Positions 21,326 to 45,779 of a stretch of 64,000 nucleotides of DNA are shown piece by piece. This DNA is from an uncultured bacterium. Its GTDB lineage: Bacteria > Patescibacteriota > Minisyncoccia > UBA6257 > 2-01-FULL-56-20. The notes beneath the pieces are model-generated. The model saw nothing but the letters and a program-made list of their open reading frames with translations, was not told the DNA's origin and did not search any database. Each line of letters opens with the position of its first letter. Positions within the stretch are counted from its first letter, which is position 1. The stretch covers positions 64,625 through 128,624 of the forward strand of contig CAVYIK010000003.1 of assembly GCA_963768625.1 (NCBI GenBank), given 5' to 3'. Both the position numbers and the translations under genes were made by a program.

Positions 21326-23756
21326 TTATTCGCGAAGTCGCCGATAGATATCGTCTTCAATGGCTTGTCTATCTTGCCCATATTTCATTCGTGAGTATTC
21401 CTTGAATTTCCCCGCCAGCTCCTTCTCTCCCCCTCCCCACGACCCCGTCCCAATCCTCAAATTAAACGGTCTAGTAGATTGCCCACCAATAAGTAGCTTC
21501 GCATACGCATTCAAGTTATCAATATTTAAGAGATCATTCTGGTTAAAGACCGGCTCAAACTGCTTCACCAAGAACTCCGCATCAGACGGCCCCACCCGAA
21601 AACATAGAATAGACCCCACGTTCCCAAAGACCGCGTCTTTGATCTTGTCCGTCAGCTGGCCGATGAACTGGTGCGCCATCGTCAGGTTCAGCCGATACTT
21701 CCGCGCCTCGGACAAAATAGTCGCGATAGAATCCGTCGTAAAGTTCTGGAACTCGTCAATATAGAGATTAAAGTCCCGCCGCTTTTCCGCATCAGGCACG
21801 TCTATCCGTGAAAGTGCGGCCATGAGCAACTTCCCCGTAAAGACCATGCCAAGAAGCCCCGCATTGATGTCCCCTATCTTCCCCTTGGAAAGGTTGATGA
21901 GCAATATCTTCCCCTGGTCCATCGCCTCCCGGAAATTGAACGCCGACTTCGGCTGGCCGATGATCGGCCGCATATAGTCGTTGGAGATAAAGTTGTTGAA
22001 CTTGGACGTGATGTAGGGCGTCATGTTCGCAAGCGACGCCTCGCCGCCGGCCTTGACCGCCTCCTTCGTCCCAGAAATCAATGACGACCGGATTGTGGAT
22101 GCGCTCAAGCTTTCGCAGGCGGTACGCCGTGTCCGTGAATACGCGCGGCACTTCCATCAAGGTCGCCGGCTCGTTCGGCATGTCTTCCATCAAAAGGAGC
22201 AGCGCGTTCCGCATGTATTGCTCAAACATCGGCCCCATCGTCTCCGGCGGGAAGAGCTTGTTGAAAATGCTCTGCATCTCGTTCACGATGAACGTCTTTT
22301 CCTCCGGCCGGTTGTAGTTGTAGTCCAGCATATTGAGGCCGAGCGGGCGCGAAAGGTCGCCGGGATCAAAATAAATGACGTCGTCCAGGCGCGAGGGCGG
22401 CACGAAGCCCAAGCGCGTTCTCCACGAGGTCGCCGTGCGGGTCTATGATCGCAAGGCCCTTGCCCGCCCGGATGTCTTCTATCACCATATTGCCGATGAG
22501 CGTGGACTTTCCGGTGCCCGTCTGCCCGACGGTATAGACATGTCGGCGGCGGTCGTCGTCCGTGATGTAGATGGGCTTCGCCTGGCCGCGGAAGACGCTC
22601 TCGCCGAGGAGCGTCCCCTGCTTCGGCAGGTTCTCCGGCGGCGGGGCTTCTTTGGATTTGAGCCATTTCACGCGCGGCGTCTCCGTGGAGGCGATGGGTA
22701 GGTGATAGAAGCTCGCGATCTCTTCGCTTGAAAGCGTCATCGCCTGGCTCGCGTCGTATTCGCGAAAAATGAACTGGTGGACGAGCTTGTCCGGATTGCG
22801 CGGCTTTACGATCCTGAACTCGTTGCGCGTCGGACTCCCGAACTGGCTGAATCCGGCCGCAAGGCCGTCCAGCATGTCGCTCTGCCTGGAAGGGCGACCC
22901 CGCGGAGGCAACGAGCCGCACGTTCACGAAGAAGAGCGGCTTCATGATCTTTGCCTGGAGCGCTTTCACCGCTTCCTCGTCCACCGTGCGCTCCTGCTTC
23001 TCTTTTGCTTTTTGCTCTTCGGTCTTCGGGTTCAAAACATCGCTCGGATTGGAGAGCGAACGGCGGACCATCGCCGTGGAAAACCTTCTTGAACGGCTCC
23101 CCTTTCTTCAGCCGCTCGATCGCCGCCTGGACCTCGCTCTTTGTCCCCGCGGGAGCAGGCCTTATCACGACCTGCATCGCCGCGCCCTCGCCGATCTCGT
23201 TCACCTTCGCGAATGCACCCAGGATGGACTCAAAGGAGTCAATGCCAAGTTCGGTATATGTCCGCATCGGGAGGCCGTAGTGCTCCTTCTGCTTCACGTA
23301 CGCGGCCGCCGTCGCCCCGTGCGCATTGAAAATATTGAAATCGTCCGCCCAGCTCCTCCACGCTCGCCCCGTTCCAGAGTCCCTGGATCTGCTTCATGCG
23401 ACCGTCTCGGACCAGCGCTTCGGCACCGCAAGATAAAAATGGATCTCCTCGCCCACGTGCGGCACCGCGACTTCAAACGTGAACGGTTTCTTTATGGCGG
23501 CCAAGCTGCCCAAGAGCTGCTCAAAATGCGCAAGTTCAGCTTTGAAGTCCCCGTGCTCGCCGTGCCCGGCGCCGCCGTCACCTCCGGTCCCTGTGCCCCC
23601 CGCGCCCGCGGACGGGCGCGGTATTTTTACGAGGAAAAGCGCTGTCCCGAGCGACGCCGCCATCCGCCCGCGCGCAACCGCGCGCAAAATAAAATACACC
23701 GCGACCCCGGCCACGGCGCCGACCACGATCGCGAAGAAGATGTAGAAGCCAAGCAT
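21326..23756 (-). pseudogene. TraG/VirD4/TraD-like type IV secretion coupling-type ATPase with N-terminal TM helix; at least 6 frameshifts as given
   Basis: The protein can be followed through ORFs 23394..23756, 22806..23297, 22283..23071, 22366..22911, 21792..22412 and 21326..22108. Walker A is GQTGTGKST and Walker B is LYIDEFQNF. Confidence 0.75.
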
Positions 23757-23977
23757 TGCCTTAATTCTAGCAAATTAGGCAATTCAGCCACGGCAAGAAA
23801 CATTTTCTGAGCGTATATGACAAAAGAAACAAAAAACTCCCCACATGAGGAAGTTTTTTGGCATGCCCGTTTCAGCGATATAGCCGAATGGGACGAAACG
23901 TCCCACGGGCATAGCTCTATTTTAAAGCAAATAGTTTGCAGAAGTCAAAACTCTTTTAATAATTTTTTAATGTGGCC

Positions 23978-24404
23978 TCACTTCACGATCCCCCGTTTTT
24001 GCAGTTCCGGATACAGTTTTCCCGCAAGCGCATCATGAAAAGCATCCTGCACAAAGTACGGCGATTTGCGCGCTTCGGAGAAGCGCCTTGCCGAGTCCGT
24101 TGCGCAGGGCGACGTCAAGCAGATATTCTATCTCCAGTTTCACCTCGGCGGGAGCGTTCTGCGCATAGTCGGGCAGCGGGCTTCGGGCGGCGCCGGCGGC
24201 CGCAGCGGACGCGCTCGGCGTAGGCACCGGCACCCCCTGCGGTTTCTTCTCCAGCTGCGGAAACGCCCGGATAGCCTCTTTTATGAGCTCTTTTTCGTTC
24301 GCGTCCTTCAATTCCGGCCGCGCACGCTGGTTCTGGATCTCCGTTGCGAGGCGCTGCATATCCGCTTCAAGTGCATGTTCAAACGATGATGGCTGGTCCG
24401 GCAT
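23978..24404 (-). pseudogene. hypothetical protein, one frameshift near 24075
   Basis: ORF 24033..24404 continues in another frame as EARKSPYFVQDAFHDALAGKLYPELQKRGIVK*, with the stop at 23978. Confidence 0.5.
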
Positions 24405-24413
24405 TGATATAAT
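24405..24413 (+). promoter_or_regulatory. extended -10 TGaTATAAT, 6 nt upstream of ATG 24420 (leaderless-type)
   Basis: tgatataat gaaata ATG. Confidence 0.5.
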
Positions 24414-24419
24414 GAAATA

Positions 24420-25903
24420 ATGACGAGATCAAGACGCTCTGGCTCTTGGTTGGTATCCTCATTATAGCAACCTTCCTGCGCTTCTACCATTTCACTACTA
24501 CGCCGCCCGGCCTTTATCCGGACGAAGCGATTGATGGCAACAACGCCGCGGAGAGCCGCGGCGACCGGCCACTACCAGGTGTTCTACACTGAAGACAACG
24601 GCCGCGAAGGATTGTACGTGAATATCATTGCGGTCGATGTTCCAGTTCCTCCACGCGCCGCACGAGCCGTGGGTCGTCCGCCTCCCGGCCGCCGTCGCGG
24701 GCGTCGCTGACCGTGCTCGGGTTATATCTCCTCGTCGCTGAGCTTTTCGGCGGCGGCGCGGGGCTCCTCGCCGCATTCCTTTTAGCCACCTGCTTCTGGC
24801 ATATCAATTTTTCGCGCATCGGCTTCCGCGCGATCCTGGCGCCGCTCCTCCTCACGTGGACGCTCTGGCTTTTGATAAAAGCATTCCGGGCGGCGTCCGC
24901 GCGCTCGGCCGCCTGGTATGCCGCGGTCAGCCGGCATCGTGTATGCCGCTCGGCTTTTATACCTATATCGCCTATCGCGTGACGCCGCTCCTCTTCTTGC
25001 TTTTCATCCCGTTCTTCAAAACGCGCCCCGGCTTTTGGAAACGCGTCCTTGTTTTCATCGTCGCCGCGTTCATCGTCGCCGCGCCGATCGGCTGGTACTT
25101 TGTGAAGCACCCCGCCGACTTCTTCGGCCGGACGTCGGAGATAGCGGTCACGAACGCGCAAGCCCGGTCATCGATTTCGCCGTGAACGTCGTAAAGACGC
25201 TCCTGATGTTCAACGTGCACGGCGACGATAACTGGCGGCACAACATAAGCGGCGCGCCGGAGCTTTTCTGGCCGGTCGGCATCCTCTTCCTTCTCGGCAT
25301 CGTGCTCGGCCTCTATTCACTTTGGAAAAGCTGGCGGCGCGAAAGACGCTGCGTGACGACCCAAAGAACATGTTCCCGGCTATTCGCGCTCCTGCTCACC
25401 TTCGTATGGTTCATCCTCGCGCTGCTCCCCGCCGCTGCCTCGGACGAAGGCATCCCGCACGCGCTCCGCTCCATCCTCATGCTCCCACCCGCGCTCATCT
25501 TCGCCGCGCTCGCCGGCGTGTGGCTCTACGACCTTATAAAAAACCACTGGGGCGGGAAAATCGCAAAGACGCTTGCGGCGATTTTCCTCGTCAGCGTCGC
25601 GGTGTTCGCTTACGTTGATTACTTTGTGTCTGGGCGCGAAATCCGAACGTCCCCGGCGCTTTCAGTGCGGATTACGTGACGATCGGCCGCGAGATCAACG
25701 CGCTCCCCGCAAGCACGCCGAAGTACGTGGTGGATATCGCCGGCGGCGTCATGACGCGCGGCATCCCGATGTCCGCTGAAACGACCATCTTCATGACCGA
25801 CACTTTCCTCCCGACGCAACAAGCGGCGAAAAACGTCCACTATCTTCTCCCCAGCCAGGAAAATCAGATCCCGCCCGGCGCGCCGGTGTTTTATATACAA
25901 TAA
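24420..25903 (+). pseudogene. glycosyltransferase family 39 (ArnT/PMT-like) membrane protein; about 6 frameshifts as given
   Basis: Followed through frames: DEIKTLWLLVGILIIATFLRFYHFTTTPPGLYPDEAIDGNNA, then ORFs 24713..24982, 24856..25185, 24918..25679 and 25676..25903. Confidence 0.7.
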
Positions 25904-25945
25904 AAAAGGCGGACTTTTTAACAAGCCCGCCGTCAAGCGAAAACC

Positions 25946-26380
25946 TTACGGCTTCCCCTCCGCCTGATCCTTTTCCGCCTGGAAAATGATGTGGAGAAGT
26001 ACAAAGGGGAAAATGAGCGCATTCACCGTAGGCGACGTCGCGAGGAAGCGCTTGACGGCTGCCGTCGCCGCCCGCACTACCTTCATGATCGGAGCAAGGA
26101 TAACAGCAGCGAGCGCAAGAAGCAGGTACACTGCTTCCCCTATGAATCTCTGAATGCTGCTGCCCATCGTCCGCCGGACCAAGAAGAAAAGGCCAATAAG
26201 GAATGATACGGCCACGGCGTACGCAATGAGCCACCCGATCGCGGCGGCGCTCCATCTTCCAATCGTGAGATCCGCCAAGCAAAACAACGCGACAGAGGCC
26301 CCCAAGCCCCTACGAACTTTCCCGTCCATGGTCGGTGCCCTCCTGGTTAGGACAATACCATAAAAAACATAGCCCGTCAA
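25946..26380 (-). CDS. hypothetical membrane protein
   Basis: ORF track, with 3-4 hydrophobic helices. An alternative start is at 26329. Confidence 0.5.
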   Translation of the reverse strand: MTGYVFYGIVLTRRAPTMDGKVRRGLGASVALFCLADLTIGRWSAAAIGWLIAYAVAVSFLIGLFFLVRRTMGSSIQRFIGEAVYLLLALAAVILAPIMKVVRAATAAVKRFLATSPTVNALIFPFVLLHIIFQAEKDQAEGKP

Positions 26381-26389
26381 TCTGACGGG

Positions 26390-26698
26390 CTATGCGATCT
26401 CTACCTCGCTGTATTCTTGCCGGTGCCCTTTCTTTTTGCGCTGACGCGTCTTTGAATGATATTTGAAAACGATCTTCTTTTCGCCCCGGCCATCGCCCAA
26501 AAGCTTGGCCTGCACCTTTGCGCCTGCGACGTACGGCGTTCCTACTTCCACGCGGCCGCCCGCGGCGCGCAAAAGCACCTTGTCAAAAACGATGTCGCCC
26601 GTCGCGGAAGCTGCGAGTTTTTCCACCCTTATTTTTTGACCGGAAGAAACCCTATACTGTTTTCCGCCGGTCTGTATGACCGAAAAATCGTTTGCCAT
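26390..26698 (-). CDS. rplU: 50S ribosomal protein L21
   Basis: Internal ATG of ORF 26390..26749: FSVIQTGGKQYRVSSGQKIRVEKL...KIVFKYHSKTRQRKKKGHRQEYSEVEI. Confidence 0.9.
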   Translation of the reverse strand: MANDFSVIQTGGKQYRVSSGQKIRVEKLAASATGDIVFDKVLLRAAGGRVEVGTPYVAGAKVQAKLLGDGRGEKKIVFKYHSKTRQRKKKGHRQEYSEVEIA

Positions 26699-26711
26699 CA
26701 AAGTGTTTATG

Positions 26712-26948
26712 TTATTCGACGCCCGCTTCCGGTGATTTGAGGGCCTCAATGCGTCCTTGAAGATTGGTGCACGCCTCTTCCTCTGCCGCCAGGTCCCCTC
26801 GAAGGGAGACCTCCCGGGGCGTTCCTTCCCTCACCCCCTTAAGCTCCTTCTCGATCCCTTCGATCTTTTTTCTCGACTTACGCAAGGCCTCTTCCAAGCC
26901 CTGAAGCTCCTCTTGATTCCCCATCCCCTGCTCTTTTTCGTATGCCAT
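26712..26948 (-). CDS. small coiled-coil hypothetical protein (78 aa)
   Basis: ORF track. It is charged and heptad-like. No motif recognised. Confidence 0.4.
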   Translation of the reverse strand: MAYEKEQGMGNQEELQGLEEALRKSRKKIEGIEKELKGVREGTPREVSLRGDLAAEEEACTNLQGRIEALKSPEAGVE

Positions 26949-26949
26949 G

Positions 26950-27297
26950 TTAATTTACGTTAATGATAGCAACGAATGCGATAAAAAGCAAGACGGCGAA
27001 GACGAGGGTGACGGCCGCGACGAATTTGCCGAGGAAGGGGTCCCGCGCGTCGAACTCGAGCGCGATCACGAAGTTCATGAGCACGATCAGGGTTCCCAAG
27101 ACCGCCATGAAGACCAGTGTGCCCGGCGGGCCGACGGACGTGATACCCGAAAGGTCATTGAAGTGCAGGATGAGCGGGCTTGCCCCTGCGGTGCCCCGGA
27201 GCATGACGCGGGACCAGATCGCCCCGCCCCAAACGAAAAGGAGCGCCGCAAGCGACATAAGGCTCACCGCCCGGGAGCGCCATATTTTCTTGAGCAT
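26950..27297 (-). CDS. hypothetical membrane protein (115 aa)
   Basis: ORF track, with three hydrophobic segments. Confidence 0.5.
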   Translation of the reverse strand: MLKKIWRSRAVSLMSLAALLFVWGGAIWSRVMLRGTAGASPLILHFNDLSGITSVGPPGTLVFMAVLGTLIVLMNFVIALEFDARDPFLGKFVAAVTLVFAVLLFIAFVAIINVN

Positions 27298-27300
27298 GGA

Positions 27301-28310
27301 TTATGAAGCCTTCTCCCCGCGCAACACTGCCGCCGCGACCGCGGGGTCTATCGCGTTGATGTTCACGACCGTGGATATCTCAAACCCGCCCAGCGGAGAG
27401 ATCACGTTCACGGGGACGATCTCTATGTGCCAGTGGTGGTGAGAATGATTTTTCCCGTCCGCGGGCGCGTCATGGATGAAGAAGTTCAGGTCCGGGTCGT
27501 GCAAATATTGCTTCATCCGCTGGAGCACCGACCGCAAAAGCAGCGCCGCGTCCTTGAGGGTCGCGCGGGATGCTTTTGCAAAATACGGCTCATGGTGCTT
27601 GGGAAGGATGGCTACTTCAAAGGGACGCTTTCCGGCATAGGGCGCAATGGCGATCGCCCGCGGTTCTCCGCGATAACGCGCCGCTGCTCCTTCCGCTCTG
27701 TCGCGATGATGTCGCAGCGGACGCAGCGGCGGTGCTTTTTGTAATACTGCTCGGCGCCGCGGAGCGAGCGCGTAGTGTGCGGCGGGACGATGGGCAGGCG
27801 CGAGGATCTGGTAATGCGGGTGGGAAAGCGATGCGCCCGCTTCGGGCCCCCAGTTAAAAAAAGTAGGAGACGTAGACGTTGCAGCGGTCCTGGACGAGCG
27901 CCTGGTGCCGGCGCTGCAAAGACCGAAAGAAGCTCTTCCGCGGCTTCGGCGTCCAGGTCGGCCAAACTTTTTCGGTGGTCGCGCGCAAGGACGATCTCAT
28001 GGCTGCCGACGCCGGTCTTTGCGGCGTACATGCCGCGGGAGAGTGCAACGGCGTGCCCTGCGGAATGCGTGAGGGCCGGATATTTGTTCGGGATGACGGC
28101 GATCCTCCACCGTTTTCGCTCGCTTCCGCGCGGATAGGTCGCGATCGGGGGCCAGTTCCCCGACTTTTCGAGGTCCTCAAAAGGGCATTTCTGCTTGGAC
28201 GAAAAAACGCGGGCGCTTTTTGCCTTCAAAAATTCCTCCGGCCGCTTGGCCCGCTCGGGCGCGAGGATGACCCAATCGCCGGATACCGGGTCTTCGCGAA
28301 ATTCGCTCAT
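27301..28310 (-). pseudogene. galT: galactose-1-phosphate uridylyltransferase (HIT superfamily GalT); at least 3 frameshifts as given
   Basis: MSEFREDPVSGDWVILAPERAKRP, CPFE, IPNKYPAL, then SLSHPHYQI in another frame. The C-terminus is in ORF 27301..27537 (HHHWHIEIVP). Confidence 0.7.
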
Positions 28311-30280
28311 GGAAAAAATGTTTGTTTGACGATTAGGAGGCCGTCGCGCGGCCGCGCGCCGCCGCCCGCGATCCTGTTCAAATAATACCAATTCAAAACG
28401 TCCTTCGCTATGGGACCGCGTTCAAGCTCCCCTCTTTGGAGTTTTCGATAAGGATGAGGAGCGCGATCTGCGGATGGTTAGCACGGCGCGTAGCCGACGA
28501 AGAGCGCGTTCTCCTGCTGGTTGTTCTGCACCTGCGCGCTGCCGGTCTTCGCGCAAACGTCGAAATCGGCAGGTCGTGCAGCGAATACGCGGTGCCCTGC
28601 GGCGAGGTCACGCCCGCTTTCATCCCCTGCTGCACCTCCTGTGATCTGCGGCGAAAGATACGTGAGGTCCTCCGCCACTTGCGGCGTGGACGCGCGCGTT
28701 CAGGAACGGCCGGTAGATCTTGCCGCCATTCCCGATCGCGGCAATATAGTCTCAGAAGCTGGAGCGGGCTCGAAAAGCAGGTCTCCCTGGCCGATCGCGA
28801 CGTTATAGGTGTCGCCGAGGAGCCACGGCGTCCCGAAGCGCTGCCTGCTTCCAGCCGGCGTCGGCAAAAACCCCGCTGCCTCGTCCGGCATGTCAATGCC
28901 GGTCGGTTTCCCGAGGCCGAATGTTTGCCACCATTCGTACAGCCGGCTGATGCCGAGGCCCGCGATGCCGTAATCGCTCGGATCGTTCAGGAGCGGCGTG
29001 CTCACGGCCGGCGAACCGCCGCCCACGAGATAAAAATAAACGTCGGATGACTGCGCGAGCGCCGAGGCAAGGTTCACGTTCCCTTGATAGCGCCAGTCAA
29101 GATATTTGCTCGGCGTGGAAGAATTGTACGGGTTGGGCACCAGAAGATAGCCGGTCGAAAAGATCGTGCGGCTCGGGTCGATCACGCCTTCTTTGAGCGC
29201 CGCCACGGCATCAAGCGGCTTTATCGTGGAGCCGGGGTTGTAGAAACCGTTCACCGACGCGGTTGAAGAGCGGCTCGTCGGAGCGAAGAAAGGAGCTTTC
29301 GCACTTCGGCCGCCGTGCTCGTGCTCGGCTGCGAAAAAAGATTGTTGTCGAAGCCCGGCAGGTTCACGAGCGAGAGCACTTCGCCGGTTTGCGGGTCGAT
29401 CGCGAGGCCGATGCCGATCGTCCTCCCGAGCGACGCGAGGCCCTGGGCGAGGCGTGCGGAGAAATAGGACTGCAGGCCGCCATCGATCGTCAAATGGAGC
29501 GGGTCGCCCGCCTGCGGCACTGATTCCTGCTTCTCACCGAGCAATTGCCCTTTCGCATTCTTATACTGCACCGTGACGCCGGGCTTTCCCCGAAGCGACT
29601 GGTCGTAAAACGCCTCAATGCCGGTCTTCCCGATGAAGTCGCTGCCGTTGAGCGGTGGGATCGCTCTTGAGGTCGCTCTGGCTCACGCGCCCCACGTAGC
29701 CGACCACGGAAGAAAAGAGGGGGCCGCTGGGATATACTCTTGCGAAATCACTTTCTATCTTTATGGTCGGCAAGGCATCCGCCTGGAGGTTCACGAGCTC
29801 GTTTTGGGTGATGTCGTCGGCAAGTACGATCGGCGTTGCAAAGTCCTCCGCTGCGGCGGCGTTCACAAGGCTCGCAAGATCGTCGGGAGCGACACCAAGG
29901 ATATTCTCCGCGGCTTGCACCGTGGCCGCATCAAGCGCGGTGTCGTTCACGAACTCCCGCGCGTCAAGGACGGCCGCGAACGCCGTCTTGTTCTCCGCAA
30001 TGACGTTGCTTTCGCGGTCATAGATCACGCCGCGCGGCGCGGGCGCGGTTTCGTATTGTGTCACGTTATCTGCCGCGCGCGCGGCGTAATACCCGCCGTT
30101 CAGGGCGTCAAGGTAGATCGTGCGGCCCACCACCGCCGCTACCACGCAAAAGATCGCGATGCCAAGGTAGAAGAATGGCTTGTTGCCGAGCGGTACCTCT
30201 GCAACGTCAAGGTCGCGGCTCCAGTCGTCGTTCAGGGAATCCTCAAAAGCGACCTCTTCGTCCCGCCGCTTCATTGCCAT
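28307..30280 (-). pseudogene. mrdA: penicillin-binding protein 2 (elongasome transpeptidase); at least 5 frameshifts as given
   Basis: The N-terminal TM and dimer domain are in ORF 29615..30280, followed by 29251..29571. SxxK (STIKP) is in 28700..29254 and KTGS in 28478..28678. The tail IAKDVLNWYYL ends with an ATGA overlap onto galT. Confidence 0.75.
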
Positions 30281-30702
30281 CGATAGAGCGGAAAAAGCGT
30301 GAGCGCGCCCGTGATGAGCCCGCCCGCAAGATCAAGCAGGAACGCCGGCGAATGCGCGAGGAAGCCGGACGGCGCGGCTGCAAGATACAGCACGAGGAAT
30401 CCGAGGACGATTGCAATGCAGTTCTCGAGCCATATCTGCCAATGGAAAACGGGGTGTAGGAAATGGACGGCGATGGGAACCAGGGCGAAGACGAGGATCT
30501 CCACGCTCGCCGCGGGCTGCCAATTGAGGATGAACACCGTGAGCGCGATGAGGAATGCAAGTTCCCAAAATTCAAACACGAAGGCGAAAGAAATGAGCGC
30601 CGCGAACGAAAAATCTATGAAGATCCCTGCGCGCGCGAAGAAAAATTGCAGGAGAAGCGCAATAAAGAGCAATATGAGGCCTCCTGAAAACTTGAAGTTC
30701 AT
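30271..30702 (-). CDS. mreD: rod shape-determining protein MreD-like membrane protein
   Basis: 143 aa polytopic protein sitting between mreC and PBP2. The ORF is intact. Confidence 0.65.
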   Translation of the reverse strand: MNFKFSGGLILLFIALLLQFFFARAGIFIDFSFAALISFAFVFEFWELAFLIALTVFILNWQPAASVEILVFALVPIAVHFLHPVFHWQIWLENCIAIVLGFLVLYLAAAPSGFLAHSPAFLLDLAGGLITGALTLFPLYRWQ

Positions 30703-31378
30703 TTGGCGATAAAAACCGTTTGGACGCCGTTCATGTCGTAGGCGAAATTCAGGGATGCCTGCTCAAAGAGATTGTCGGGAGAAGTGACTGCGTCCTGGAC
30801 CACTGCGACAGGCAAGCCCGTAGGGCAATCCCTGCGCGGCGGTAATAGACAACATCCCCCGGCGCCGACTTTCGCTGTCTTTATAAGGGAGGCCACGACG
30901 GGCGAGGCGCCGCCTACAAGGAGGGCGTCGTATCCATGCGGCTCCCACGCGCACCGGCATTTTAAACCGGGGTCAAACACGGTTTGCACGAGCGAAGCGT
31001 GCGGGAAAGTTTGCGAAACGATGCCGATCAAGATCCCCTGGAAGACCACCGCTTTCCCCGTGGCGACGCCCTCGCTCGCGCCCGCATCCACCGTGAACTC
31101 GTTTTTAAAATTGAACGGGTAGCGGGAATAGACGATGGCGCGGAGATAGCCGGGCGATGCATTCGGCAGTTCTGCTGCAACATTCTGAAGCGTCGCGAGC
31201 TGGGCCTTTAGCGCCTCGTTCTCCGCCGCGAGGTCCGGGCTCACGGACGATGATGCCGCTGGCGCAGCGCTAAGCCAGTTGCGCACGGCGCCGCCATCGG
31301 AAGGCGGCAGAAGAAGATGAGCACGCCAAGAGGATCGGCGCTCGCGGATATCAAGAACCATCGATCGCGCTTTCTCAC
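30699..31378 (-). pseudogene. mreC: rod shape-determining protein MreC; N-terminal and internal frameshifts as given
   Basis: A GTG at 31378 gives VRKRDRWFLISASADPLGVLIFF (TM), then shifts into ORF 30699..31361 (coiled coil AENEALKAQLATLQ, beta domains). Local frame excursions occur near 30790-30960. Confidence 0.7.
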
Positions 31379-31381
31379 GAT

Positions 31382-33665
<2,284 letters not shown>

Positions 33666-33706: not shown

Positions 33707-33967
33707 CTAGCCCTTTGTCTCAAGAGCGCTAACTCGATGATCAAGCGCAGCTACTTCGCTCACGTCGGCTTTTTTCTTAAGCTGATTTTTTATGATCACA
33801 ATATCCAATATTATGGAGTCAATCTTTTCGCCTTGCAATACAAACATACACTTCATATCGTCAAACTCTTCCCGCAAGCCGACGTATTGTTCCACCACTA
33901 ATTTTATTTTGTCATCATAATGTTCCGTAACTACACCGACGATATGATGGGCATGCGTCTCAAACAT
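33707..33967 (-). CDS. hypothetical protein (86 aa), AT-rich
   Basis: ORF track. It is intact and has markedly lower GC than neighbouring genes. Confidence 0.45.
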   Translation of the reverse strand: MFETHAHHIVGVVTEHYDDKIKLVVEQYVGLREEFDDMKCMFVLQGEKIDSIILDIVIIKNQLKKKADVSEVAALDHRVSALETKG

Positions 33968-34069
33968 TCTCCCTATCTCAGAAAAGAATTCCTCTTTTTC
34001 AATTTTTCCATTAACGCAACCATAGCATACGGATGGTTAAAATTATCTAAACTATTTATTAAATTTTCA

Positions 34070-35169
34070 TTAAATGATAATACCGCCTCCCAACATCTCT
34101 CCATCTTTACGGTAAAACACAGCCGACTGGCCGGGAGCCACGAATTTCTGTGGCTTCGCGAAGTCCAATTTATTATAGTTGCCACTTTCTCCTTTTGAAA
34201 GAGTTGCCGTCGAAAGCGGCTGGCGATAGCGGACGCGCGCAAACACTGTGCTGAGCGCGCTCTTCTGGCGACTGTCCATCGATAAAATTCACCCCCGCGA
34301 GCTCGATCTCTTTGTGATACAACGCAGGATTTTCGTCCCCTTCCGCCACTACGACCACATTGGCTGCTACATCTTTTGAGGCAACATAGAACGGCTTGCG
34401 TTCCTTCGCGCCGCCCGTCTTCGGGAACTTAAAATCGGCCTTGATGTGCCGCTCGCCGATCGTATAGAACTCCGCGCCGGAATGCGTACCGATCTTCTTT
34501 CCTTCAGTGGTCATAAGCACCCCGCGCCGCTCGGGAATATATTGCTTCAAAAAATCTGTCCACCGAGATCTGCCCCAAAAAGCAGATTCCCTGCGAATCC
34601 TTTTTTTCTGCGGTCGGAATTCCCTTCGCGCGCGCCATTGCCCGTACTTCGGACTTCAAATAATCGCCTATCGGGAAAAGGCACTTTACAAGCTCGGCCT
34701 GCGTAAGCGTCCAGAGGAAATACGACTGATCTTTAGTTTTATCCTTTGCTTCAAATAAGCGCGCTGAGCCATCGCGACTCCGCGCGGGCACTGTCCCGCT
34801 GATCCGCACATAATGCCCCGTCGCCACATAATCCGCGCCTGCCGCAAGCGCTTTCTTCAAAAACAATCCGAACTTTATCTCGCGGTTGCACATCACGTCC
34901 GGATTCGGCGTGATGCCCGCGCGATAGCCCTCAATCATATAATCCACCACGCGCTGCTTGTACTCTTCTTCAAAATCCCAGACGTAAAACGGAATGCCGA
35001 AGTGCTCCGCCACGCGCCGCGCGTCCTCCGCGTCCCGCTCGGCGCAGCCGTCCAAGTTATAACAACGCATAAAAACACCCACGACCTCGTAGCCCTCGTC
35101 CCTCAAAAGCATTGCCGCAACGGAGCTATCCACCCCGCCGGACATCCCGACAAACACCTTCTTTGCCAT
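34070..35169 (-). pseudogene. mnmA: tRNA 2-thiouridine(34) synthase MnmA; at least 2 frameshifts as given
   Basis: PP-loop VGMSGGVDSSV and the remaining N-terminal half are in ORF 34504..35169. It continues in 34173..34550 and 34070..34279. Confidence 0.85.
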
Positions 35170-35176
35170 ATCCTTA

Positions 35177-35740
35177 CTATACCCGCTCCACGTACTGTCC
35201 GGTCTCCGTGTTCACGCGGATCGTGTCGCCCTCGTTGACGAAAAGCGGCGCGTTGATCTTTGCTCCCCCTTCGATGACTACTGATTTTGTGCCGCCCTGC
35301 GCGGTGTTCCCCTTGATGCGACGGCGGCGCTTCGATCACTTTGAAATCCATCTTGATCGGGCATATCCGATCTTAATGACTTTTTCATTAAATACCATCG
35401 TGGCCACTTTGGTGTTCGGCTTCAAAAACTGCCCGCGGTCGCCCAAGAGCTCCGCCGGAAGCGAGAAGCGGTTCTTCGGATTCCCCTCCTCGTGGAACCA
35501 ATATTCGCCGCGGTTCGCATAGATGAAGATCGCTGACTTCTTTTCTATTTCCGCCTCCTCAAAAGAGTCGCTCGGCTGGAAATTGCGGTCCAGGACTTTC
35601 GCCGTGATCAGGTTCCGGATGCGCGTCTGCACGACGGCCTTCCGCTGCTGCATGCGCAAAAAATGCGACTCAAGCACCTCGTACGGCGCCCCGTCCATAA
35701 TAAAAAGAACTCCTTTGGTGAGATCGGTATAGGACAACAT
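35177..35740 (-). pseudogene. efp: translation elongation factor P; 2 frameshifts as given
   Basis: MLSYTDLTKGVLFIMDGAPYEVLESHFLRMQQRKAVVQTRIRNL (ORF 35336..35830), then [11 protein letters not shown] (35103..35351), then the third frame [52 protein letters not shown] -10 lies 8 nt upstream of the ATG. Confidence 0.85.
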
Positions 35741-35851
35741 CGGATAGTAGTATAGCAAAATTTTTGGTTTTGTGAAGGGGTGGTGGACAGATAAAAAAAT
35801 CCGGTGGCGCATTGCATAGCAACGCACCACCGGGACGTGAGAGGGAACAAC

Positions 35852-36175
35852 TTAGCGCATCCACCGCGCGGACGGGATCGGCTCTGAGATAAAAGTTTTG
35901 GGCGGCGGCGAAGAGTTGACCTTCTGCCGACGCCTCATAACCGCTACCGCGGAGAGCGCGAGAATGACAATCCAAAGACAGAGCGCTGACGTGCGGATTG
36001 CCGGCACGTTGTGCGTGGTCGCCCAGATAAGCCGGGTAAGCCATACTACCAATCCGCCGATGCTGCAGAGCAGAACGGTGACGAACGCGGGGAACGCGAT
36101 CACCTGAGCCGTCCGATTTTCGCACAGCGAATCCCACCGGGTCCAGGAGCTTCCCCTGTAAGCCGTGTTTCCCAT
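35852..36175 (-). CDS. hypothetical membrane protein
   Basis: Internal ATG of ORF 35852..36226, with two TM helices. Confidence 0.45.
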   Translation of the reverse strand: MGNTAYRGSSWTRWDSLCENRTAQVIAFPAFVTVLLCSIGGLVVWLTRLIWATTHNVPAIRTSALCLWIVILALSAVAVMRRRQKVNSSPPPKTFISEPIPSARWMR

Positions 36176-36244
36176 ATTGACAATACCTCTATCTTGTATT
36201 CTAACATAACCAATTTTTAATGTCAAATTAATGAAAGGGTTGTT

Positions 36245-36283
36245 AAACCAAAAGCCGCCGGGATGCGATCCGCGGCGGCTTTG
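36245..36283 (-). terminator. hairpin terminator after the rpsP-KH operon
   Basis: AAGCCGCCGCGGAT-cgc-ATCCCGGCGGCTT on the minus strand, followed by TTGGTTT. Confidence 0.55.
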
Positions 36284-36292
36284 AGAAATCGA

Positions 36293-36622
36293 TCAATAGT
36301 TATCGCGCCCTCCTTCCGGTCTTCCTTCGCTTCTCGGACGGTCGGGCCTCGGAGGCCTGGTGCTCCCCTCCGGCTCCTCGATCTTCAGATTCACACGTGC
36401 GTTGTTCTTCACCCCCACGATCCTCAAGAGCGAGCGGATGGCCTTCGCGGTCGCGCCCTGACGGCCGACCACCTGGCCCATGTCCATCGGATTCACGCGA
36501 AGCGAGAGCAAAACGCCCATCTCATCGACCTTGCGGTCGACCTTCACATCATCCGGATGGTCCACGAGGGACTTCACGAGGTACTCAAGGAATTCCTGAT
36601 CAGCGGTAGTTGAATTCGCCAT
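36293..36622 (-). CDS. KH-domain RNA-binding protein (YlqC/UPF0109-like)
   Basis: FLEYLVKSLVDHPDDVKV...MGQVVGRQGATAKAIRSLL (a GxxG KH motif), in the conserved position after rpsP. Confidence 0.8.
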   Translation of the reverse strand: MANSTTADQEFLEYLVKSLVDHPDDVKVDRKVDEMGVLLSLRVNPMDMGQVVGRQGATAKAIRSLLRIVGVKNNARVNLKIEEPEGSTRPPRPDRPRSEGRPEGGRDNY

Positions 36623-37083
36623 TACTTCGATTGTTGCTTTCGACCTTTCTTCTTTTCTTTCTATGCCTAGGCTGCAGCGGCGCTTCTGCGGCCACGGGAT
36701 TTCTGGAGCGGCCTGCGGCGGGGGTTCGCGCGCTCGGAGCGCTCGCTGCGGCTGGAGCTGCGGCCTTGGCCGGAGCCGCTGCCGCCGCGGGAGCCGCTAC
36801 TTCTTCCTTCTTCGATTTCTTGTTCATCTTCACCGTCATTTTCGGGACGGAAAGAATGCCCTGTTCAACGAGGAGATTGTGCGTCGTCACGGTCGGCCGC
36901 GCACCCATCTTCATCCAATGCGCCACCCGTTCTTTATTGAAGAACCGCCTTCTTCGTGAACGGATTATAGGTACCCAAATCCTCCACGGGTGGGGCCGCC
37001 ATCTTTGACCGCTTTTCGGCGACCACCAAGCGATAGCTCGGCTGGTGCTTCTTGCCTCCGCGCTGCAATTTAATGGCCAACAT
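36622..37083 (-). pseudogene. rpsP: 30S ribosomal protein S16 with long Ala/Lys-rich tail; 1-2 frameshifts as given
   Basis: ATG at 37083 gives MLAIKLQRGGKKHQPSYRLVVAEKRSKMAAPPVEDLGTYNPFTKKAVL, then a stop. It continues in the frame of ORF 36600..37100 (NKERVAHWMKMGARPT). The tail probably ends at a TAATG overlap with the KH gene. Confidence 0.8.
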
Positions 37084-37090
37084 AGGGAAT

Positions 37091-37120
37091 AGTGTAGCAA
37101 AATAATATACGATTTGTCAA
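37091..37120 (-). promoter_or_regulatory. promoter TTGACA-18-TACACT, 7 nt upstream of rpsP ATG (leaderless-type)
   Basis: Minus strand reads gatTTGACAaatcgtatattattttgcTACACTattccctATG. Confidence 0.55.
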
Positions 37121-37134
37121 ATCTTTTGGGCTCT

Positions 37135-40144: not shown

Positions 40145-40146
40145 CC

Positions 40147-41366: not shown

Positions 41367-41544
41367 GCCTCCGCATAGGTCTTGTTTTTGAACCGTGGCG
41401 GGAGGCGAGGGTAAGCGCGGCATGAGCGAGCAGAAAATTTGACGGGACCCCCGTGCTTGTCGCGGAGGGTGGCAAATTTTCGTAAGCGAGCGAATGCCGC
41501 GCCCGAGCCGGAGCCGGGTTCAAAAACAAGACCTATGCGGAGGC
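41367..41544. repeat. 178-bp element: perfect 28-bp inverted repeats enclosing 122 nt with nested repeats; right arm contains the smc stop codon
   Basis: GCCTCCGCATAGGTCTTGTTTTTGAACC (41367-94) is the exact reverse complement of 41517-44. The interior has GCGCGGCAT...AAAATTTG / CAAATTTT...ATGCCGCGC. Confidence 0.85.
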
Positions 41545-43758
41545 GGCCGGTTCCAGCTTCAATGACACGATCTTTGACGTCCCATCCTCATCCAGCGTCA
41601 CGCCATAGAGGATATCCGCCGCCTCCATCGTCGCCCGGTTGTGCGTGACCACGATGAACTGCGTGCGCTTGGAAAATTCCTTGAGCATGTCCCCGAAGCG
41701 CCGCGCGTTTCGTTCGTCAAGCGGCGCATCCACCTCGTCCAAGACAAGGAACGGCGGCGGGCTCACGGAAACCATCGCAAAGAGCGCGGCGATGCCCACC
41801 AAGCTCCGCTCGCCGCCCGAGAGCATATCAAGCGTCGTGACCTTCTTGCGCGGCAATTTCACGTCTATTTCAATCCCGCCATCTTTCTCAATCGCAAATT
41901 CCTTTTCCACTTCCTCCGCGACGCTTTCCGCTTCCTCGTTTTCGCCGCCCTCCTCCCCCTCCTCGTCTTTTTTGGGCAACCGCGGCTTTTCGACCTTGAG
42001 CTTCGCCGTCCCGCCGCCGAACATAAGCCCGAAGAATTTTTCGAACTCGTTATTGATCTTCCCGAGCGATTTATCAAATTCTGTCTTTATCTTCTCGCTC
42101 AATTCCTGCATGAGGCCCGTGAGGTCAGCGACCGCCTTTTCCAAGTCCTCCGATTCCTTCGTGAGGAATCCGTACCGCTCTTCCGTATCGCGCGCTTCTT
42201 TCATAAGCGCCTCGTCTATCTCGCCGATGGACGCGAGGTCGCCGCGCAAGCGGAAAAGCCGCCGCTCGGCTTCGCGAAGGTCGGCTTCGTGCATTTCCGC
42301 AGGGACCCGCGCGTGCGCAAAGTCCTCCGCCTTACGCCCGGCTTGTTCTATCTGCCGTAATACCTCCTCGCGCCGCAGGTCCAGTCGCTCCTTCTCAAGC
42401 AAAAGCTCCCGGTGCGCATTTTCCCATTCCCCTATCCGGTTCTTCGCCGTCTGCACATCCGCCACCGCCGCCTTGAAGACTTTATAAAATCCTTCCTGGT
42501 TCTGTTCCAGTGATTTCTCCTTCTCGCGGAGCGAGGCGAGTTCTTTATCAAGCCCCTCCAAATCGCGCGAAAGCTTTTCAAGCTGGGACTTCAAACCGGC
42601 CGCAGCCCCGCTCGCGGCGGCACCCGATTTCCTTTCTCCCCTTTCTTTGAGGATATCCGCTATCTCTTCAAGGATATTCTCCACCGTTGCATGGAGCTCA
42701 AGCGCATCCTCGTCAAGCGCCCGCTTCGAGCTCTTCGTTGATCATATTGATAAGGTTGATCAGTCGTTCGGCCGACGGTCCCGCAGGCGCGATCGCGCCC
42801 GATGACTGCGCAAGTTCCATCTGCGCCTCAAGCCGGCCCAGGTCCTTCTGTAGCGCACTGCGCCGCTCCATGAGCGAGCGGATGTCCCCCTTGATCCCGC
42901 CAAGCGCCTTTTTCTCTTCCGGCTGGCTCGCTTCAACTTCCGCCTGGCGGGCTTCCGCCGTTTTGCGCTCTTTTTCCAAGCCGTCGGACTGCTTTTTGCT
43001 CACTGAAATTTTTTCCTCCGCCGCCTTCCCTTTTTCGCCAAGCTCTTTCAATTGGAAACCGAAGAACTGCTCCTCAAGCGTGCGCAGCTCTTCTTCTAGG
43101 GCGCCACGCCGTTCCCACCGGTTCGTCTGGCGTTTGAGCGAACGAAGGTGCGGCAAAATTTCTTCAACGAGCGCCTTCGTCTTATCCAAATTGATGCGGC
43201 TGTTCTTGAGCCGCCGCTCGGCGTCCGCTTTCTTGAGCTGGTACTCGCGGAGGCCCAGAATCTCTTCTATCATCTCGCGCCGCTCCATCGGCGTGGAACG
43301 GATAAAGAGATCACTGTCGCCCTGGCCGATGATGATGAGTCCGCGGCTCCCCATGCGCGCTTTTGCGAAAAAATCAACGAGGTCGCGCAAGAGCACCTCT
43401 GCCTTGTTCAAAAAATATTTGCTGTCACCGCTCCGGGAGATCTGCCGCGTGATCGACCACTTCTTCAAAATCCACCGGGAAGAACTTGTTCCGGTTCTCA
43501 AAGTGCAGACTCGCGTTTGCCATTCCCACGCGCGGCCGCTTTTGCGTGCCCGCAAAAATAAGGTCCTCCACTTTACCGCCACGGAGGTTCTTCGTGTCGC
43601 GTTCGCCGAGGAGCCACCGCAAGGCATCCACGATATTGGACTTCCCGGAACCGTTCGGCCCCACGACCGCAACGATCCCCGCCGGAAATTCCAAAACCGT
43701 CTTTCCCGCAAAGGATTTGAAGCCGTTCAATTCAAGCCGTTTCAGAAAAGTGCGCCAT
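41533..43758 (-). pseudogene. smc: SMC-family chromosome segregation ATPase, short (~740 aa, no obvious hinge); at least 3 frameshifts as given
   Basis: Head N: LKRLELNGFKSFAGKTVLEFPAGIVAVVGPNGSGKSN (43425..43730). Coiled coil is in 42713..43711. Head C is in 41533..42684 (LSGGERSL, LVLDEVDAPLD). The ATG at 43758 needs a 1-nt correction in a T-run. Confidence 0.8.
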
Positions 43759-44443
43759 TATTTATGCTTTTTGAGCGCGTTCTTCGCCGCCTCGAGCTCG
43801 GCTTCCTGCTTGGACGCGCCCTCGCCCTCCGCCATGAGCTTGTCGCCGAAATAGACGCCCATCTTGAACATGCGCTTGTGTGCCGGACCGGATTCGTCCA
43901 AGCATCTGGTACGTCGGCGTGATCTTCAATTTTTCCTGGATGAGTTCCTGCAGTTCGCTCTTCGCATCCTTGTAGCTTTTCGTCTTCATCACTTCGTCCA
44001 GATTGTTCATCACGAACTTTTTGCACGAACGGGCGAACTTTTTCCAGCCCCTGGTCAAGATACATCGCGCCGATCACCGCCTCTATCGCGTTCGCCAAAA
44101 TGACCTCGCGCGCTTTGCCCGTATCTTTCTTCTCGCCGCGCGACATCAAGATAAAATCATCTAAGCCCACGTCCTCCGCCACCCTCGCAAGGATTTGATA
44201 GTTCACGAGCGCCGCGCGGAGCACCGTGAGCTTGCCTTCGGGATAGTCCGGAAATTTCGCGAATAGCTCCTCGGAAACGAGGAGCTCCAAGACCGCGTCG
44301 CCTAGATATTCCAGGCGCTCATTGTGCGGCAAATGCCACCGCGGGAACTCATTCAGATATGAGCGATGCGTGAGCGCTTCCGTAAGCAGGTCTTTGTTCT
44401 TGAAGGGAATTCCGATTTTTTTTTCCAGTTTTTCCAAGTCCAT
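43758..44443 (-). pseudogene. rnc: ribonuclease III; 2 frameshifts as given
   Basis: ALTHRSY, NERLEYLGDAVL and ANAIEAVIGAMYLD are in ORF 43742..44443. The dsRBD continues in 43762..44058 and a third frame (ESGPAHKRMFKMGVYFGDKLMAEGEGASKQEAELEAAKNALKKHK*). There is a TAATG overlap with smc. Confidence 0.85.
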
Positions 44444-44455
44444 GGTGTGCTGTTC

Positions 44456-44926
44456 CTACTTTTTCTTTTCCGCCTGCGCTCTTTTCCGCGGCACCTGCGG
44501 TACTTCCGCTCGCCCACTTCCCGGTAGATGGTGCCCAAGACGCCGTTCATGAACCGCGCGGCGTTCGGTCCGCCGTAATTCTTCGCAAGCTCGATTGACT
44601 CGTTGATGGCGACTTTCGGCGGCACCTCGTCCGGGTCGGCGTAGAAAAGCTCATACAGCCCGATGCGCAAAATATTCCGGTCAATGATCGCGATCTTGTC
44701 GAGCGGCCATTCGGGCGCCGCCTTCGTGATCACATTATCAATATGCTTCAAATGCTCCGCAACGCCCTTCAATATCTTCCACGCGAATTCCGGCTCATCA
44801 ATGCCCGGCGCGAATTCGTTGAGGTTCCGCTCCAGGATCTCCGTAATGTCCTTTTTTTGCCCATAAAAATCCCACTCGTAGAGCGTTTGGAGGATGACGG
44901 TCCGTATTAAGATGTCGTGTGGCCAT
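44456..44926 (-). pseudogene. nusB: transcription antitermination factor NusB; 1-2 frameshifts as given
   Basis: ATG at 44926 gives MATRHLN, then a shift into [17 protein letters not shown]...[14 protein letters not shown] (ORF 44353..44772). The probable true stop is at 44456. Confidence 0.75.
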
Positions 44927-44968
44927 GATTTGCAAAGAACTGACCGCCCTATCCGCCCGCCCGCATCG

Positions 44969-45122
44969 TTATTTCACCCCGCATTGCGGGCAGGCGCGGT
45001 GCGCAAGCTTCGGCGCGCCGCAGTTCTTGCAAACAAAAAGGCGCTGCTTTCTTCATCGCCAAGTGCGAACGCCTCCGACCAACTTTGCCTTTTGAATGAT
45101 GTTTTACCGGTACGCCTCCCAT
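44969..45122 (-). pseudogene. rpmF: 50S ribosomal protein L32; 1 frameshift as given
   Basis: MGGVPVKHHSKGKVGRRRSHLAMKKAA, then a shift gives [23 protein letters not shown] (a CxxC...CxxC zinc ribbon). Not in the ORF track. Confidence 0.7.
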
Positions 45123-45127
45123 TGAAT

Positions 45128-45779
45128 TTATGCTCTCATAATAGCCGATTTTCCGCTAAACGTCAAACGGTGCGCCGGGCACGGGCCGTGCTTTTTGATC
45201 GCGCGGCGGTGGGCGCCCGTGCCATATCCCTTATGGATCTCAAACCCATACTTCGGATATTTTTTTGCCAAGCGGCACATCAAGCGATCGCGATAGACCT
45301 TCGCCACAATGGAGGCCGACTTTGATGGCGCTTATTTTCTCGTCGCCTTTTATGACCGTCTTGGTACTCCTCGGGCGGGCGGCACGGTCGCTACTCCTCC
45401 CCCCGCCATTGCCCAAAAACAGCCCGCCGTCGAGGAAAACAAGGCCTTGGACGGCGAGCCGCTCAAAGGCCCGTTCTGCTGCAATATTCGCCGCCTTTGA
45501 GATGTTACGCTTTTCTATCTGCCGCGGATAAACCCGGGCGACAGCGAATTCAATTTGGGGATGATCGCTGAAATATGCCGCCCATGCCTCCCGTCGCGCC
45601 ACGCTCAATTTTTTAGAGTCTTTTAATTTCCCGAGTGCGCGGCTCCGTGGCACGAATCCCGCGGGCAATGCCGCCGCCGCAACGACGACCGGCCCCGCGA
45701 GCGCCCCGCGGCCCACTTCATCAATGCCCACGATCCATCGCCCGTGCTTGCCATGCCTGCACCCATTGTTCCTCCGCAT
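45128..45779 (-). pseudogene. rnhB: ribonuclease HII; 1 frameshift as given
   Basis: IVGIDEVGRGALAGPVV is in ORF 45240..45938. The C-terminus continues in another frame ([53 protein letters not shown]). Confidence 0.85.

Follow-up and report, generated by a model that had tools for sequence, protein, structure and literature searches.

Results

Interrupted reading frames in two blocks of conserved genes

The window analysed here, a stretch of 64,000 nucleotides, contains two blocks of conserved genes whose reading frames are interrupted. Block 1 (22067..37131) begins within a gene for a TraG/VirD4-like ATPase of 800 aa (21329..23756, minus strand), which carries 6 frameshifts (22067, 22413, 22882, 23069, 23349 and 23398) and whose corrected product is 83% identical to its orthologue P0253 across all 800 residues. 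The orthologues bear PF26449, PF01935 and PF02534, and since over 100 relatives carry the gene at 60-83% identity, it is a conserved core gene of the lineage and not an accessory one. Next come genes for a conserved hypothetical protein (23981..24428, minus; 2 frameshifts, at 24080 and 24390) and a GT39/PMT_2-type glycosyltransferase (24420..25897, plus; 9 frameshifts, including a T at 25628 that is missing in the window and present in a Logan contig, see below), a galT-like gene (27310..28310, minus; 4 frameshifts, at 27661, 27798, 27865 and 27917) and the gene for PBP2 (28358..30283, minus; 10 frameshifts). The frame of mreD (30271..30702, minus) is intact; it contains a compensating pair, +T at 30548 and -T at 30544, which alters two residues with respect to a JGI relative as well as the Logan contig. 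Further along, mreC (30702..31330, minus) has 6 frameshifts, mreB (31385..32433, minus) 8 single-base insertions and proS (32436..33665, minus) 6 single-base insertions, followed by mnmA (34073..35169, minus; 2 frameshifts, 34557 and 34265), efp (35180..35740, minus; 2 frameshifts, 35364 and 35318) and rpsP (36711..37083, minus; 1 frameshift, 36939).

Block 2 (42721..45323) holds 8 single-base insertions, distributed over a gene for a short SMC-like ATPase (41533..43758, minus; 42721, 43454 and ~43756), rnc (43758..44434, minus; 43908 and 44020), nusB (44518..44926, minus; one insertion after codon 5, at 44911), rpmF, encoding L32 (44969..45122, minus; one near 45040), and rnhB (45158..45740, minus; 45323). 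One fragment of the SMC-like gene, the ORF 41533-42684, is already a deposited protein (P0121).

Intact orthologues, for which the syntenic locus L002 and P0253 served as sources, were aligned to the window using our own frameshift-aware protein-to-DNA alignment. Together with manual additions this gave 65 frame breaks in the 64 kb, 3 of them at sites recognised by manual inspection, 1 from a Logan contig and the rest from the alignment, so that the breaks previously put at about four dozen are real and their number had been set too low. Signals falling in the upstream, non-coding portion of ORF queries that ran from stop to stop were left out as spurious (galT 28317-28470, mreD 30814, KH 36623, efp 35741 and GT39/hypothetical 24418-24442). 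The breaks comprise 54 shifts of +1, 5 of +2, 5 of -1 and 1 of -2, that is, 59 insertions against 6 deletions of 1-2 nt (an insertion excess of 10:1); none of the 65 lesions exceeds 2 nt, and no in-frame stop occurs in any corrected coding sequence. About 19 conserved genes are disrupted. After correction, all are full length and 63-89% identical to their orthologues, the upper value being that of MreB against its L002 orthologue, and Pfam models are spanned end to end (MreB_Mbl, 2-325/327; PBP2 transpeptidase, 3-298/299; SMC_N, 1-219/220; all three MnmA domains). The TAATG junctions of rnc-smc and proS-mreB, the latter restored at the end of the corrected proS frame, the extra T in CACTTTTCTG and the in-frame read-through of the uncorrected proS into mreB are all as had been described; the break at the 3' end of proS, in contrast, is a +1 shift, and hence an extra base rather than the missing A proposed before.

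The restriction of the breaks to two blocks, also claimed previously, was borne out. Block 1 contains 57 frame-breaking indels with a mean spacing of 269 bp, and they are clustered (coefficient of variation of the gaps, 1.41). At the block 1 rate, the absence of events from the 5.6-kb gap between the blocks has a probability of ~7e-10, and their absence from the flanks one of ~1e-67. The breaks do not fill block 1, however: as much as 2 kb at a time can be without indels in its interior, and rplU, the KH protein, two small ORFs and the first 221 aa of PBP2 are among the parts spared.

Block 1 and the clean blocks differ in their agreement with a second assembly

As a comparator we used an independent k-mer assembly (Logan) of run ERR11594402, which represents the same population; the run is possibly the deposited contig's own library. 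Five Logan contigs agree almost perfectly with the window across 22.2 kb of its clean blocks, the exceptions being 2 mismatches and 1 indel located at contig tips or at a block edge. Identity is 100% for L087 (6238..8679), L083 (46996-51881) and L086 (51852-55359); L082 (14542..21262), which stops 64 bp short of the TraG-like gene, shows a single mismatch 3 nt from its tip, and L001 (37027..41628) shows 2 differences, both within 105 bp of its end, where it reaches the edge of block 1. These two lie just upstream of rpsP: position 37084 is mismatched, and at 37131 the window has a surplus G (intergenic, counted as 1 event) that L001 does not have. No direct repeats of at least 18 nt, of the kind expected of attachment sites, that would explain the ends of the Logan contigs around the 47-52 kb island were found.

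A different picture was obtained inside block 1. Contig L084 (25482..27658) differs from the window by 20 SNPs and 1 indel, and L085 (29168..30778) by 26 SNPs and 3 insertions in addition to the compensated pair, which amounts to 46 SNPs in 3788 positions (1.2%), plus the indels; over the ~22 kb of clean blocks the corresponding figure is 0 SNPs. The genes on both contigs are intact: the PBP2 insertions of the window (G at 29653, T at 29282, C at 29256) are all absent from L085, on which the N-terminal part of PBP2 runs uninterrupted for 369 aa, and the lesion at 25628 is likewise absent from L084. The alignment had placed these same frameshifts independently at 29653, 29283, 29255 and 25630. 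In block 1 these contigs represent another haplotype and not the window's haplotype minus its indels, and both the window and the Logan contigs keep to one haplotype throughout.

Most of the SNPs are at codon position 3 (28/46, 61%) and synonymous (26/46), which argues that the second strain is real; at the ten amino-acid differences in PBP2, the window has the residue that is commoner among ten relatives in 8 cases. The SNPs accordingly reflect natural variation, and the indel-bearing haplotype is a natural lineage rather than noise. Two strains or more of this Parcubacteria species make up the sampled population. No conspecific genome was present among the GTDB representatives, where the best match was 72% aa identity (MnmA, L002), and no same-strain fragments were seen among the matches listed in searches with chimeric corrected proteins, those listed being full-length orthologues of 60-79% identity, which also served in later comparisons. 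Exact matching of the proteins encoded at 54036-55931, 36293-36622 and 26950-27297, and of P0121, gave no match in the contig index.

The preliminary description had contrasted broken core genes with clean accessory islands. This contrast did not survive, as the clean blocks also contain intact Obg, ABC-F, GreA, PGK, DnaJ and DnaK, as well as GrpE, CysRS, DnaB and RecR. The real axis is whether the strains differ or are identical.

Indels lie close to SNPs and often pair with a synonymous alternative

At a finer scale, the indels are concentrated in sub-blocks rich in SNPs: each of the 5 sites that could be set against Logan sequence is 3-39 bp from a SNP (P = 0.008; P = 0.0004 for the local SNP count around the sites). 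In the L084 stretch, 17 of the 20 SNPs and the indel fall in 25482-25850, and the SNP-poor rest is without frameshift, as is the SNP-free segment 29660-30450 of the L085 stretch; altogether, ~2.6 kb of SNP-poor sequence within block 1 contains zero indels.

We then compared each inserted base with its neighbour. At 29 of the 47 testable +1 sites the two form a synonymous allele pair, in 28 of the 29 cases at codon position 3, while simulated random insertions gave 42% (p = 0.005) and insertions duplicating a neighbour 39% (p = 0.001). With a looser score tolerance the count rose to 43/47 against a null of 63% (p = 8e-6). Overall, allele pairs with a deduced second allele account for 62-91% of the 47 sites as compared with 39-63% under the null (p = 5e-3 to 6e-7). 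The excess is thus significant without being overwhelming, as the null itself already stands at 40-60%, and C/G pairs make up 13/29 of these deduced pairs, compared with 10/46 of the observed SNPs.

The sequence context suggested earlier for inspection, homopolymers and methylation motifs, proved to be associated in neither respect. Among 43 scored +1 sites, the run length was 1 at 23, 2 at 16, 3 at 3 and 5 at 1, so that only 4/43 are in runs of 3 or more, the random expectation being 18%, and a homopolymer bias was rejected. A methylation or sequence-motif link was also rejected, with no k-mer enriched after multiple-test correction; as the errors are neither of the homopolymer type nor motif-linked, the methylation idea is without support.

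Discussion

Origin of the frame breaks

Taken together, the data indicate, with a probability that we put at roughly 0.92, that the frame breaks are technical consensus errors in the deposited contig and not mutations of living cells. Consensus or polishing error, with strain mixture among its causes, had already been put forward in the preliminary description, and it agrees with lesions of only 1-2 nt, with conserved full-length products after correction, with intact versions in Logan of the two stretches that it covers and with the coincidence of the broken blocks with the places where the haplotypes differ. As is the hallmark of haplotype merging, the errors occur only where the haplotypes differ and are clustered with the variable sites. 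A long-read assembly is the most likely source, because the contig is a single 588-kb sequence. The strains are identical over most of the window and ~1-4% apart in two mosaic blocks. As regards the behaviour of the assembler, which we infer, the contig would follow one haplotype in these blocks with a corrupted consensus, in which at a fraction of the variable sites both SNP alleles would be emitted adjacently, giving a +1 insertion, and less often neither, giving a -1 deletion. In strain-identical stretches the same procedure would yield error-free sequence. The support for this emission of two adjacent alleles is statistical, and in our estimation it is somewhat better than an even bet.

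A possible but distinctly less probable variant has no merging of alleles: the contig would pass through the path of a minor strain covered by few reads, on which random read errors survive, and shared stretches would be clean through the summed coverage of both strains. That the window and Logan each consistently follow one haplotype fits this about as well as it fits a collapsed mixture, and the limitation of the errors to where the haplotypes differ also speaks for it. The error profile of Nanopore or HiFi reads is, however, not one of homopolymer-avoiding insertions in 10:1 excess, and synonymous allele pairs exceed what random insertions would give. SNP-poor sequence within the block is, moreover, free of errors for 0.8-1.8 kb at a time, which would require bubbles at the scale of a few hundred bases. 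Low coverage is nevertheless a known cause of frameshifts in long-read metagenome-assembled genomes (MAGs), and with R10.4 reads ~40x is required before their quality becomes near-finished (Sereika et al. 2022, PMC9262707).

Explanations in which the indels exist in cells fare much worse. Genuine mass pseudogenisation, with one strain truly carrying ~65 frameshifts in genes such as those for MreB, ProRS, EF-P, S16, L32, PBP2 and SMC, could draw on the indel-bearing haplotype being a natural lineage and on the Logan contigs of block 1 representing the other haplotype, so that the window's strain could truly bear them. We regard it as very improbable, given that the 65 lesions include neither a nonsense codon nor an indel above 2 nt and that they are biased towards insertions, whereas bacterial genes usually decay with a bias towards deletions. 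The 63-89% identity of the corrected proteins and the mostly synonymous SNPs imply that selection acted until the present; single-copy essential genes are struck many times while adjoining core genes in identical blocks are lesion-free, and the population also contains intact alleles of this locus. That a strain truly carries dozens of +1 insertions in essential genes and still makes full-length proteins, the shifts being corrected in some way, whatever their context, on the RNA or on the ribosome, is scarcely credible, and the least probable proposal of all is recoding, with programmed ribosomal frameshifting or transcriptional slippage reading through the breaks. Conservation of the corrected frames is all that speaks for recoding. 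Comparison with orthologous loci, as recommended earlier, showed continuous frames at the break positions in L002, P0253 and P0001-P0010, as in the Logan contigs, so the break sites are not conserved; moreover, the sites have no common motif, the longest run is of 5 identical bases at one site only, and up to 10 shifts would be needed per gene.

Relation to known cases

Pseudogene-rich genomes, such as those of Mycobacterium leprae and recent insect symbionts, resemble the window in having many interrupted reading frames. Real decay of that kind is a mix of nonsense mutations and larger deletions, accompanied by a loosening of amino-acid conservation; it leaves essential genes untouched and does not keep to blocks. 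The window shows none of these hallmarks. A closer parallel to the consensus errors that we propose is early FALCON, which, on a diploid animal genome sequenced with PacBio CLR, produced indels at heterozygous sites through a haplotype-merging consensus (Korlach et al. 2017, PMC5632298). There, small indels occurred only in merged regions and at nucleotides that differ between haplotypes, and they vanished on phasing; the indels of the window would be of the same kind. The two haplotypes are here, however, bacterial strains that occur together in a metagenome. Truncated genes in long-read MAGs (IDEEL-type tests, Sereika et al. 2022, PMC9262707; proovframe, preprint 10.1101/2021.08.23.457338) are likewise conserved genes split by single-base indels and detected by comparison with full-length homologues. 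Those truncations are mainly homopolymer-linked, coverage-dependent and genome-wide, unlike the present ones, which avoid homopolymers and lie in strain-variable blocks. According to passages of the Strainy preprint (10.1101/2023.01.31.526521), the graphs of long-read metagenomes contain strain-collapsed unitigs interspersed with strain-resolved ones, much as strain-identical and strain-differing stretches alternate along the present contig; these passages describe graph structure and make no mention of frameshift artefacts arising from it.

Significance

The biology of the locus is ordinary, and the worth of the finding is practical. If the breaks are consensus errors, a public 588-kb MAG contig carries ~65 false frameshifts by which ~19 conserved genes are fragmented, with at least one fragment (P0121) deposited separately. 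Through such fragments a genome looks less complete than it is, genes are wrongly recorded as pseudogenes or as absent, and protein databases become noisier. The pattern can be recognised without reads, namely as block-wise, homopolymer-avoiding insertions, often after codon position 3, in which the extra base is a synonymous alternative, and could help to pick out strain-merging errors elsewhere among long-read MAGs. As regards the organism itself, the analysis also yielded evidence of two co-occurring strains whose sequences are the same over tens of kilobases and diverge by 1-4% in short mosaic sub-blocks, and such mosaic divergence is the pattern that homologous recombination would produce.

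Distribution of the frame breaks

The ORF map of the window is shredded at about 21-37 kb and 42-45 kb and normal elsewhere. A search with the MnmA fragment identified a Candidatus Parcubacteria locus (L002; 72% amino-acid identity) as the nearest in a species-representative genome, and window positions 23979-46870 are collinear with it in reverse orientation, L002 having no counterpart of 37.9-41.1 kb. The genes at about 37900-41100 (DsbA-like thioredoxin, HIT protein, hypothetical protein and D-Ala-D-Ala ligase), all missing from collinear L002, were either gained in the window lineage or lost in the L002 lineage. The fragment ORF 41533-42684 is found verbatim as a deposited protein (P0121) of a 588,419-bp NCBI/ENA contig, and many further window ORFs likewise match deposited proteins of this contig; the window hence belongs to a publicly deposited MAG contig which, to judge by its size, probably stems from a long-read assembly.

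Frameshifts were detected with our own protein-to-DNA dynamic-programming aligner, permitting frameshifts of 1-2 nt, the queries being each L002 orthologue and, for the TraG-like gene, its 800-aa orthologue P0253. Events were left out where stop-to-stop queries reached into upstream non-coding sequence, while three sites (proS 3' end, smc start and rpmF) were put in by eye and one (37131) from the Logan contig comparison. This yielded 65 frame-breaking events (+1, n = 54; +2, n = 5; -1, n = 5; -2, n = 1), 57 in 22067-37131 (block 1) and 8 in 42721-45323 (block 2), and none in the rest of the window, bearing out the preliminary description, which had reported many interrupted frames limited to two blocks. 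Such a distribution is incompatible with a uniform rate across the window (P about 7e-10 for the event-free 5.6 kb between the blocks; P about 1e-67 for the event-free 40.7 kb of flanks). The corrected real coding parts contain no in-frame stops, and the corrected proteins span Pfam models end to end and are 63-89% identical to their orthologues (MreB 89%, NusB 86%, TraG-like 83%, RNase III 81%), the frames of which are unshifted. The gene junctions and indel examples listed earlier stand as claimed, except that the break at the proS 3' end is an extra base and not a missing one. The contrast once drawn between broken core genes and clean accessory ones does not hold, since the clean blocks carry intact essential genes (Obg, PGK, DnaK, DnaJ, GrpE, CysRS, DnaB, RecR and GreA).

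The TraG-like gene (21329-23756, minus strand) encodes, after whole-gene correction, an 800-aa product 83% identical to P0253; its relatives in more than 100 Parcubacteria are of equal length, 58-71% identical over the query portion, and carry the domains PF26449, DUF87 and T4SS-DNA_transf. Its behaviour is that of a conserved lineage core gene rather than of a mobile-element component.

Comparison with an independent assembly

For independent sequence we turned to run ERR11594402, whose Logan k-mer assembly yielded seven contigs to exact-protein look-ups. Five match the clean blocks (6238-8679, 14542-21262, 37027-41628, 46996-51881 and 51852-55359); over these 22.2 kb, the window differs only by a single mismatch, 3 nt off the tip of a contig, and by a further mismatch plus an indel within the final 105 bp of contig L001, exactly at the block 1 edge. 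Beyond these 22 kb, the integrity of the clean blocks was judged solely from uninterrupted ORFs and full-length matches to Pfam.

The two remaining contigs, L084 (25482-27658) and L085 (29168-30778), lie within block 1 and show, besides indels, 46 single-position differences from the window over 3788 bp. Their genes are intact, among them PBP2, whose N-terminal part extends uninterrupted over 369 aa. Compared with these contigs, the window carries an extra G (29653), T (29282) and C (29256) and a missing T (25628), and the aligner, independently of Logan, called frameshifts at 29653, 29283, 29255 and 25630; in mreD, a +T/-T pair 4 nt apart separates the window from L085. These contigs represent the other haplotype in block 1, not the window haplotype minus its indels. 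Codon position 3 accounts for 28/46 of the SNPs and 26/46 are synonymous, which is not a pattern that sequencing noise would leave. At 8 of 10 amino-acid differences in PBP2 the window residue is the commoner among ten relatives; for MreD, contrariwise, it is the Logan version that matches a JGI relative. Together with the SNP pattern, this indicates that both haplotypes are natural, and the differences in block 1 are a real second strain. Inside the blocks the window keeps to one haplotype, and elsewhere both haplotypes are identical. At least 22 kb are shared without difference by the co-occurring strains, which elsewhere diverge by 1.2% overall and by up to about 4% within sub-blocks a few hundred bases long.

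Position and nature of the inserted bases

The SNPs are clumped, 17 of the 20 in L084 falling within 370 bp and none across 29660-30450, and all five directly compared indel sites lie within such clumps, at most 39 bp from a SNP (5/5; P = 0.008; summed local SNP count, P = 0.0004). In block 1, SNP-poor sequence totalling about 2.6 kb is free of frameshifts; over the whole block, the distances between events are over-dispersed (coefficient of variation 1.41) and clean gaps reach 2 kb.

Homopolymers and a methylation motif had both been put forward as possible indel contexts. Run length was scored at 43 +1 sites: at 23 the base differs from both neighbours, and only 4 fall in runs of at least 3, no more than random insertion gives, and homopolymer extension was rejected. 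No 4- or 5-mer was enriched around the inserted bases, leaving the methylation motif without support. In the cases compared directly, the window looks as though two alleles stood one after the other (ACC/ACG giving ACCG, GTG/GTC giving GTCG, and CCC/TCC giving CTCC). We therefore scored, at 47 suitable +1 sites, whether the same best-scoring protein results from removing one or the other of two adjacent, unlike bases. This was so at 62% of them (29 sites, 28 at codon position 3), against 42% for simulated random insertions (p = 0.005) and 39% for neighbour-duplicating ones (p = 0.001); with a looser tolerance the figures were 91% versus 63% (p = 8e-6). This supports, but does not prove, that the inserted bases are merged alleles of variable sites.

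Other features of the window

The tRNA at 10805-10877 (minus strand; ARAGORN call tRNA-?(Ala|Ser)) combines an alanine-type acceptor stem (G3.U70) with an irregular anticodon arm, readable as an 8-nt loop, CCUGCUAU, or as 4 bp, a C.U mismatch and a 6-nt loop. Its closest relatives, from JGI metagenomes (L121 and L194), have the acceptor, D and T arms in common, and are 1 nt longer, with a normal loop, the anticodon CGA (Ser) and no long variable arm. It represents either a tRNA family with Ala-like identity and non-Ala anticodons or a 1-nt error in an otherwise clean-looking block. The HrcA ORF (56458-57120, minus strand) has only 220 aa, its Pfam HrcA_C match begins at profile position 94, and no HrcA signal was found in the ORF upstream; this reflects either a short form specific to the lineage or a fault in a clean block that escaped detection.

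Besides several unknown proteins, the low-GC island at about 12500-21262 encodes a DUF6339 protein, an m5C DNA methyltransferase (20022-21116) and a Vsr-type very-short-patch endonuclease, and it resembles an island for restriction-modification or defence. A second low-GC island (46950-51881) adjoins tRNA-Lys(UUU) (46950-47023), and its large serine recombinase (47871-49208) suggests an integrated element; no flanking direct repeats of at least 18 nt were found around it, and Logan contigs break at both its ends. A perfect 28-nt inverted repeat (41367-41394/41517-41544; spacer 122 nt) lies in a roughly 430-bp non-coding stretch between tRNA-Ala(CGC) (41157-41228) and the smc-like 3' end.

Origin of the frame breaks

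Overall, the frame breaks are best explained as a consensus artefact limited to stretches where co-occurring strains differ, and are not a biological feature. The consensus-error reading favoured in the preliminary description is thus supported, Logan contigs of the same population encoding intact genes in the two stretches of block 1 that they cover. In strain-variable stretches, the consensus would write both alleles of a variable site one after the other. The same kind of artefact has been described for diploid genomes (PMC5632298); interleaved strain-collapsed and strain-resolved segments are known from long-read metagenome graphs (10.1101/2023.01.31.526521), and truncation of proteins by frameshifts is an acknowledged quality issue in long-read MAGs (PMC9262707). 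A close rival, likewise an artefact, would have the contig track a rare strain with few supporting reads through the variable stretches; this fits the consistent haplotype of the window, but accords less well with the absence of a bias towards homopolymers, with the allele-pair signal and with the clean stretches seen at fine scale.

Gene decay accords very poorly with 65 small indels and zero nonsense mutations, a 10:1 ratio of insertions to deletions, retained amino-acid conservation, repeated events in single-copy essential genes and intact alleles in the same population. Programmed recoding can be excluded, since the orthologues are unshifted and the sites have nothing in common.

The pattern is usable as a recognisable error signature. 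It also points to mosaic strain divergence in this population, and such divergence suggests homologous recombination within this Parcubacteria population.
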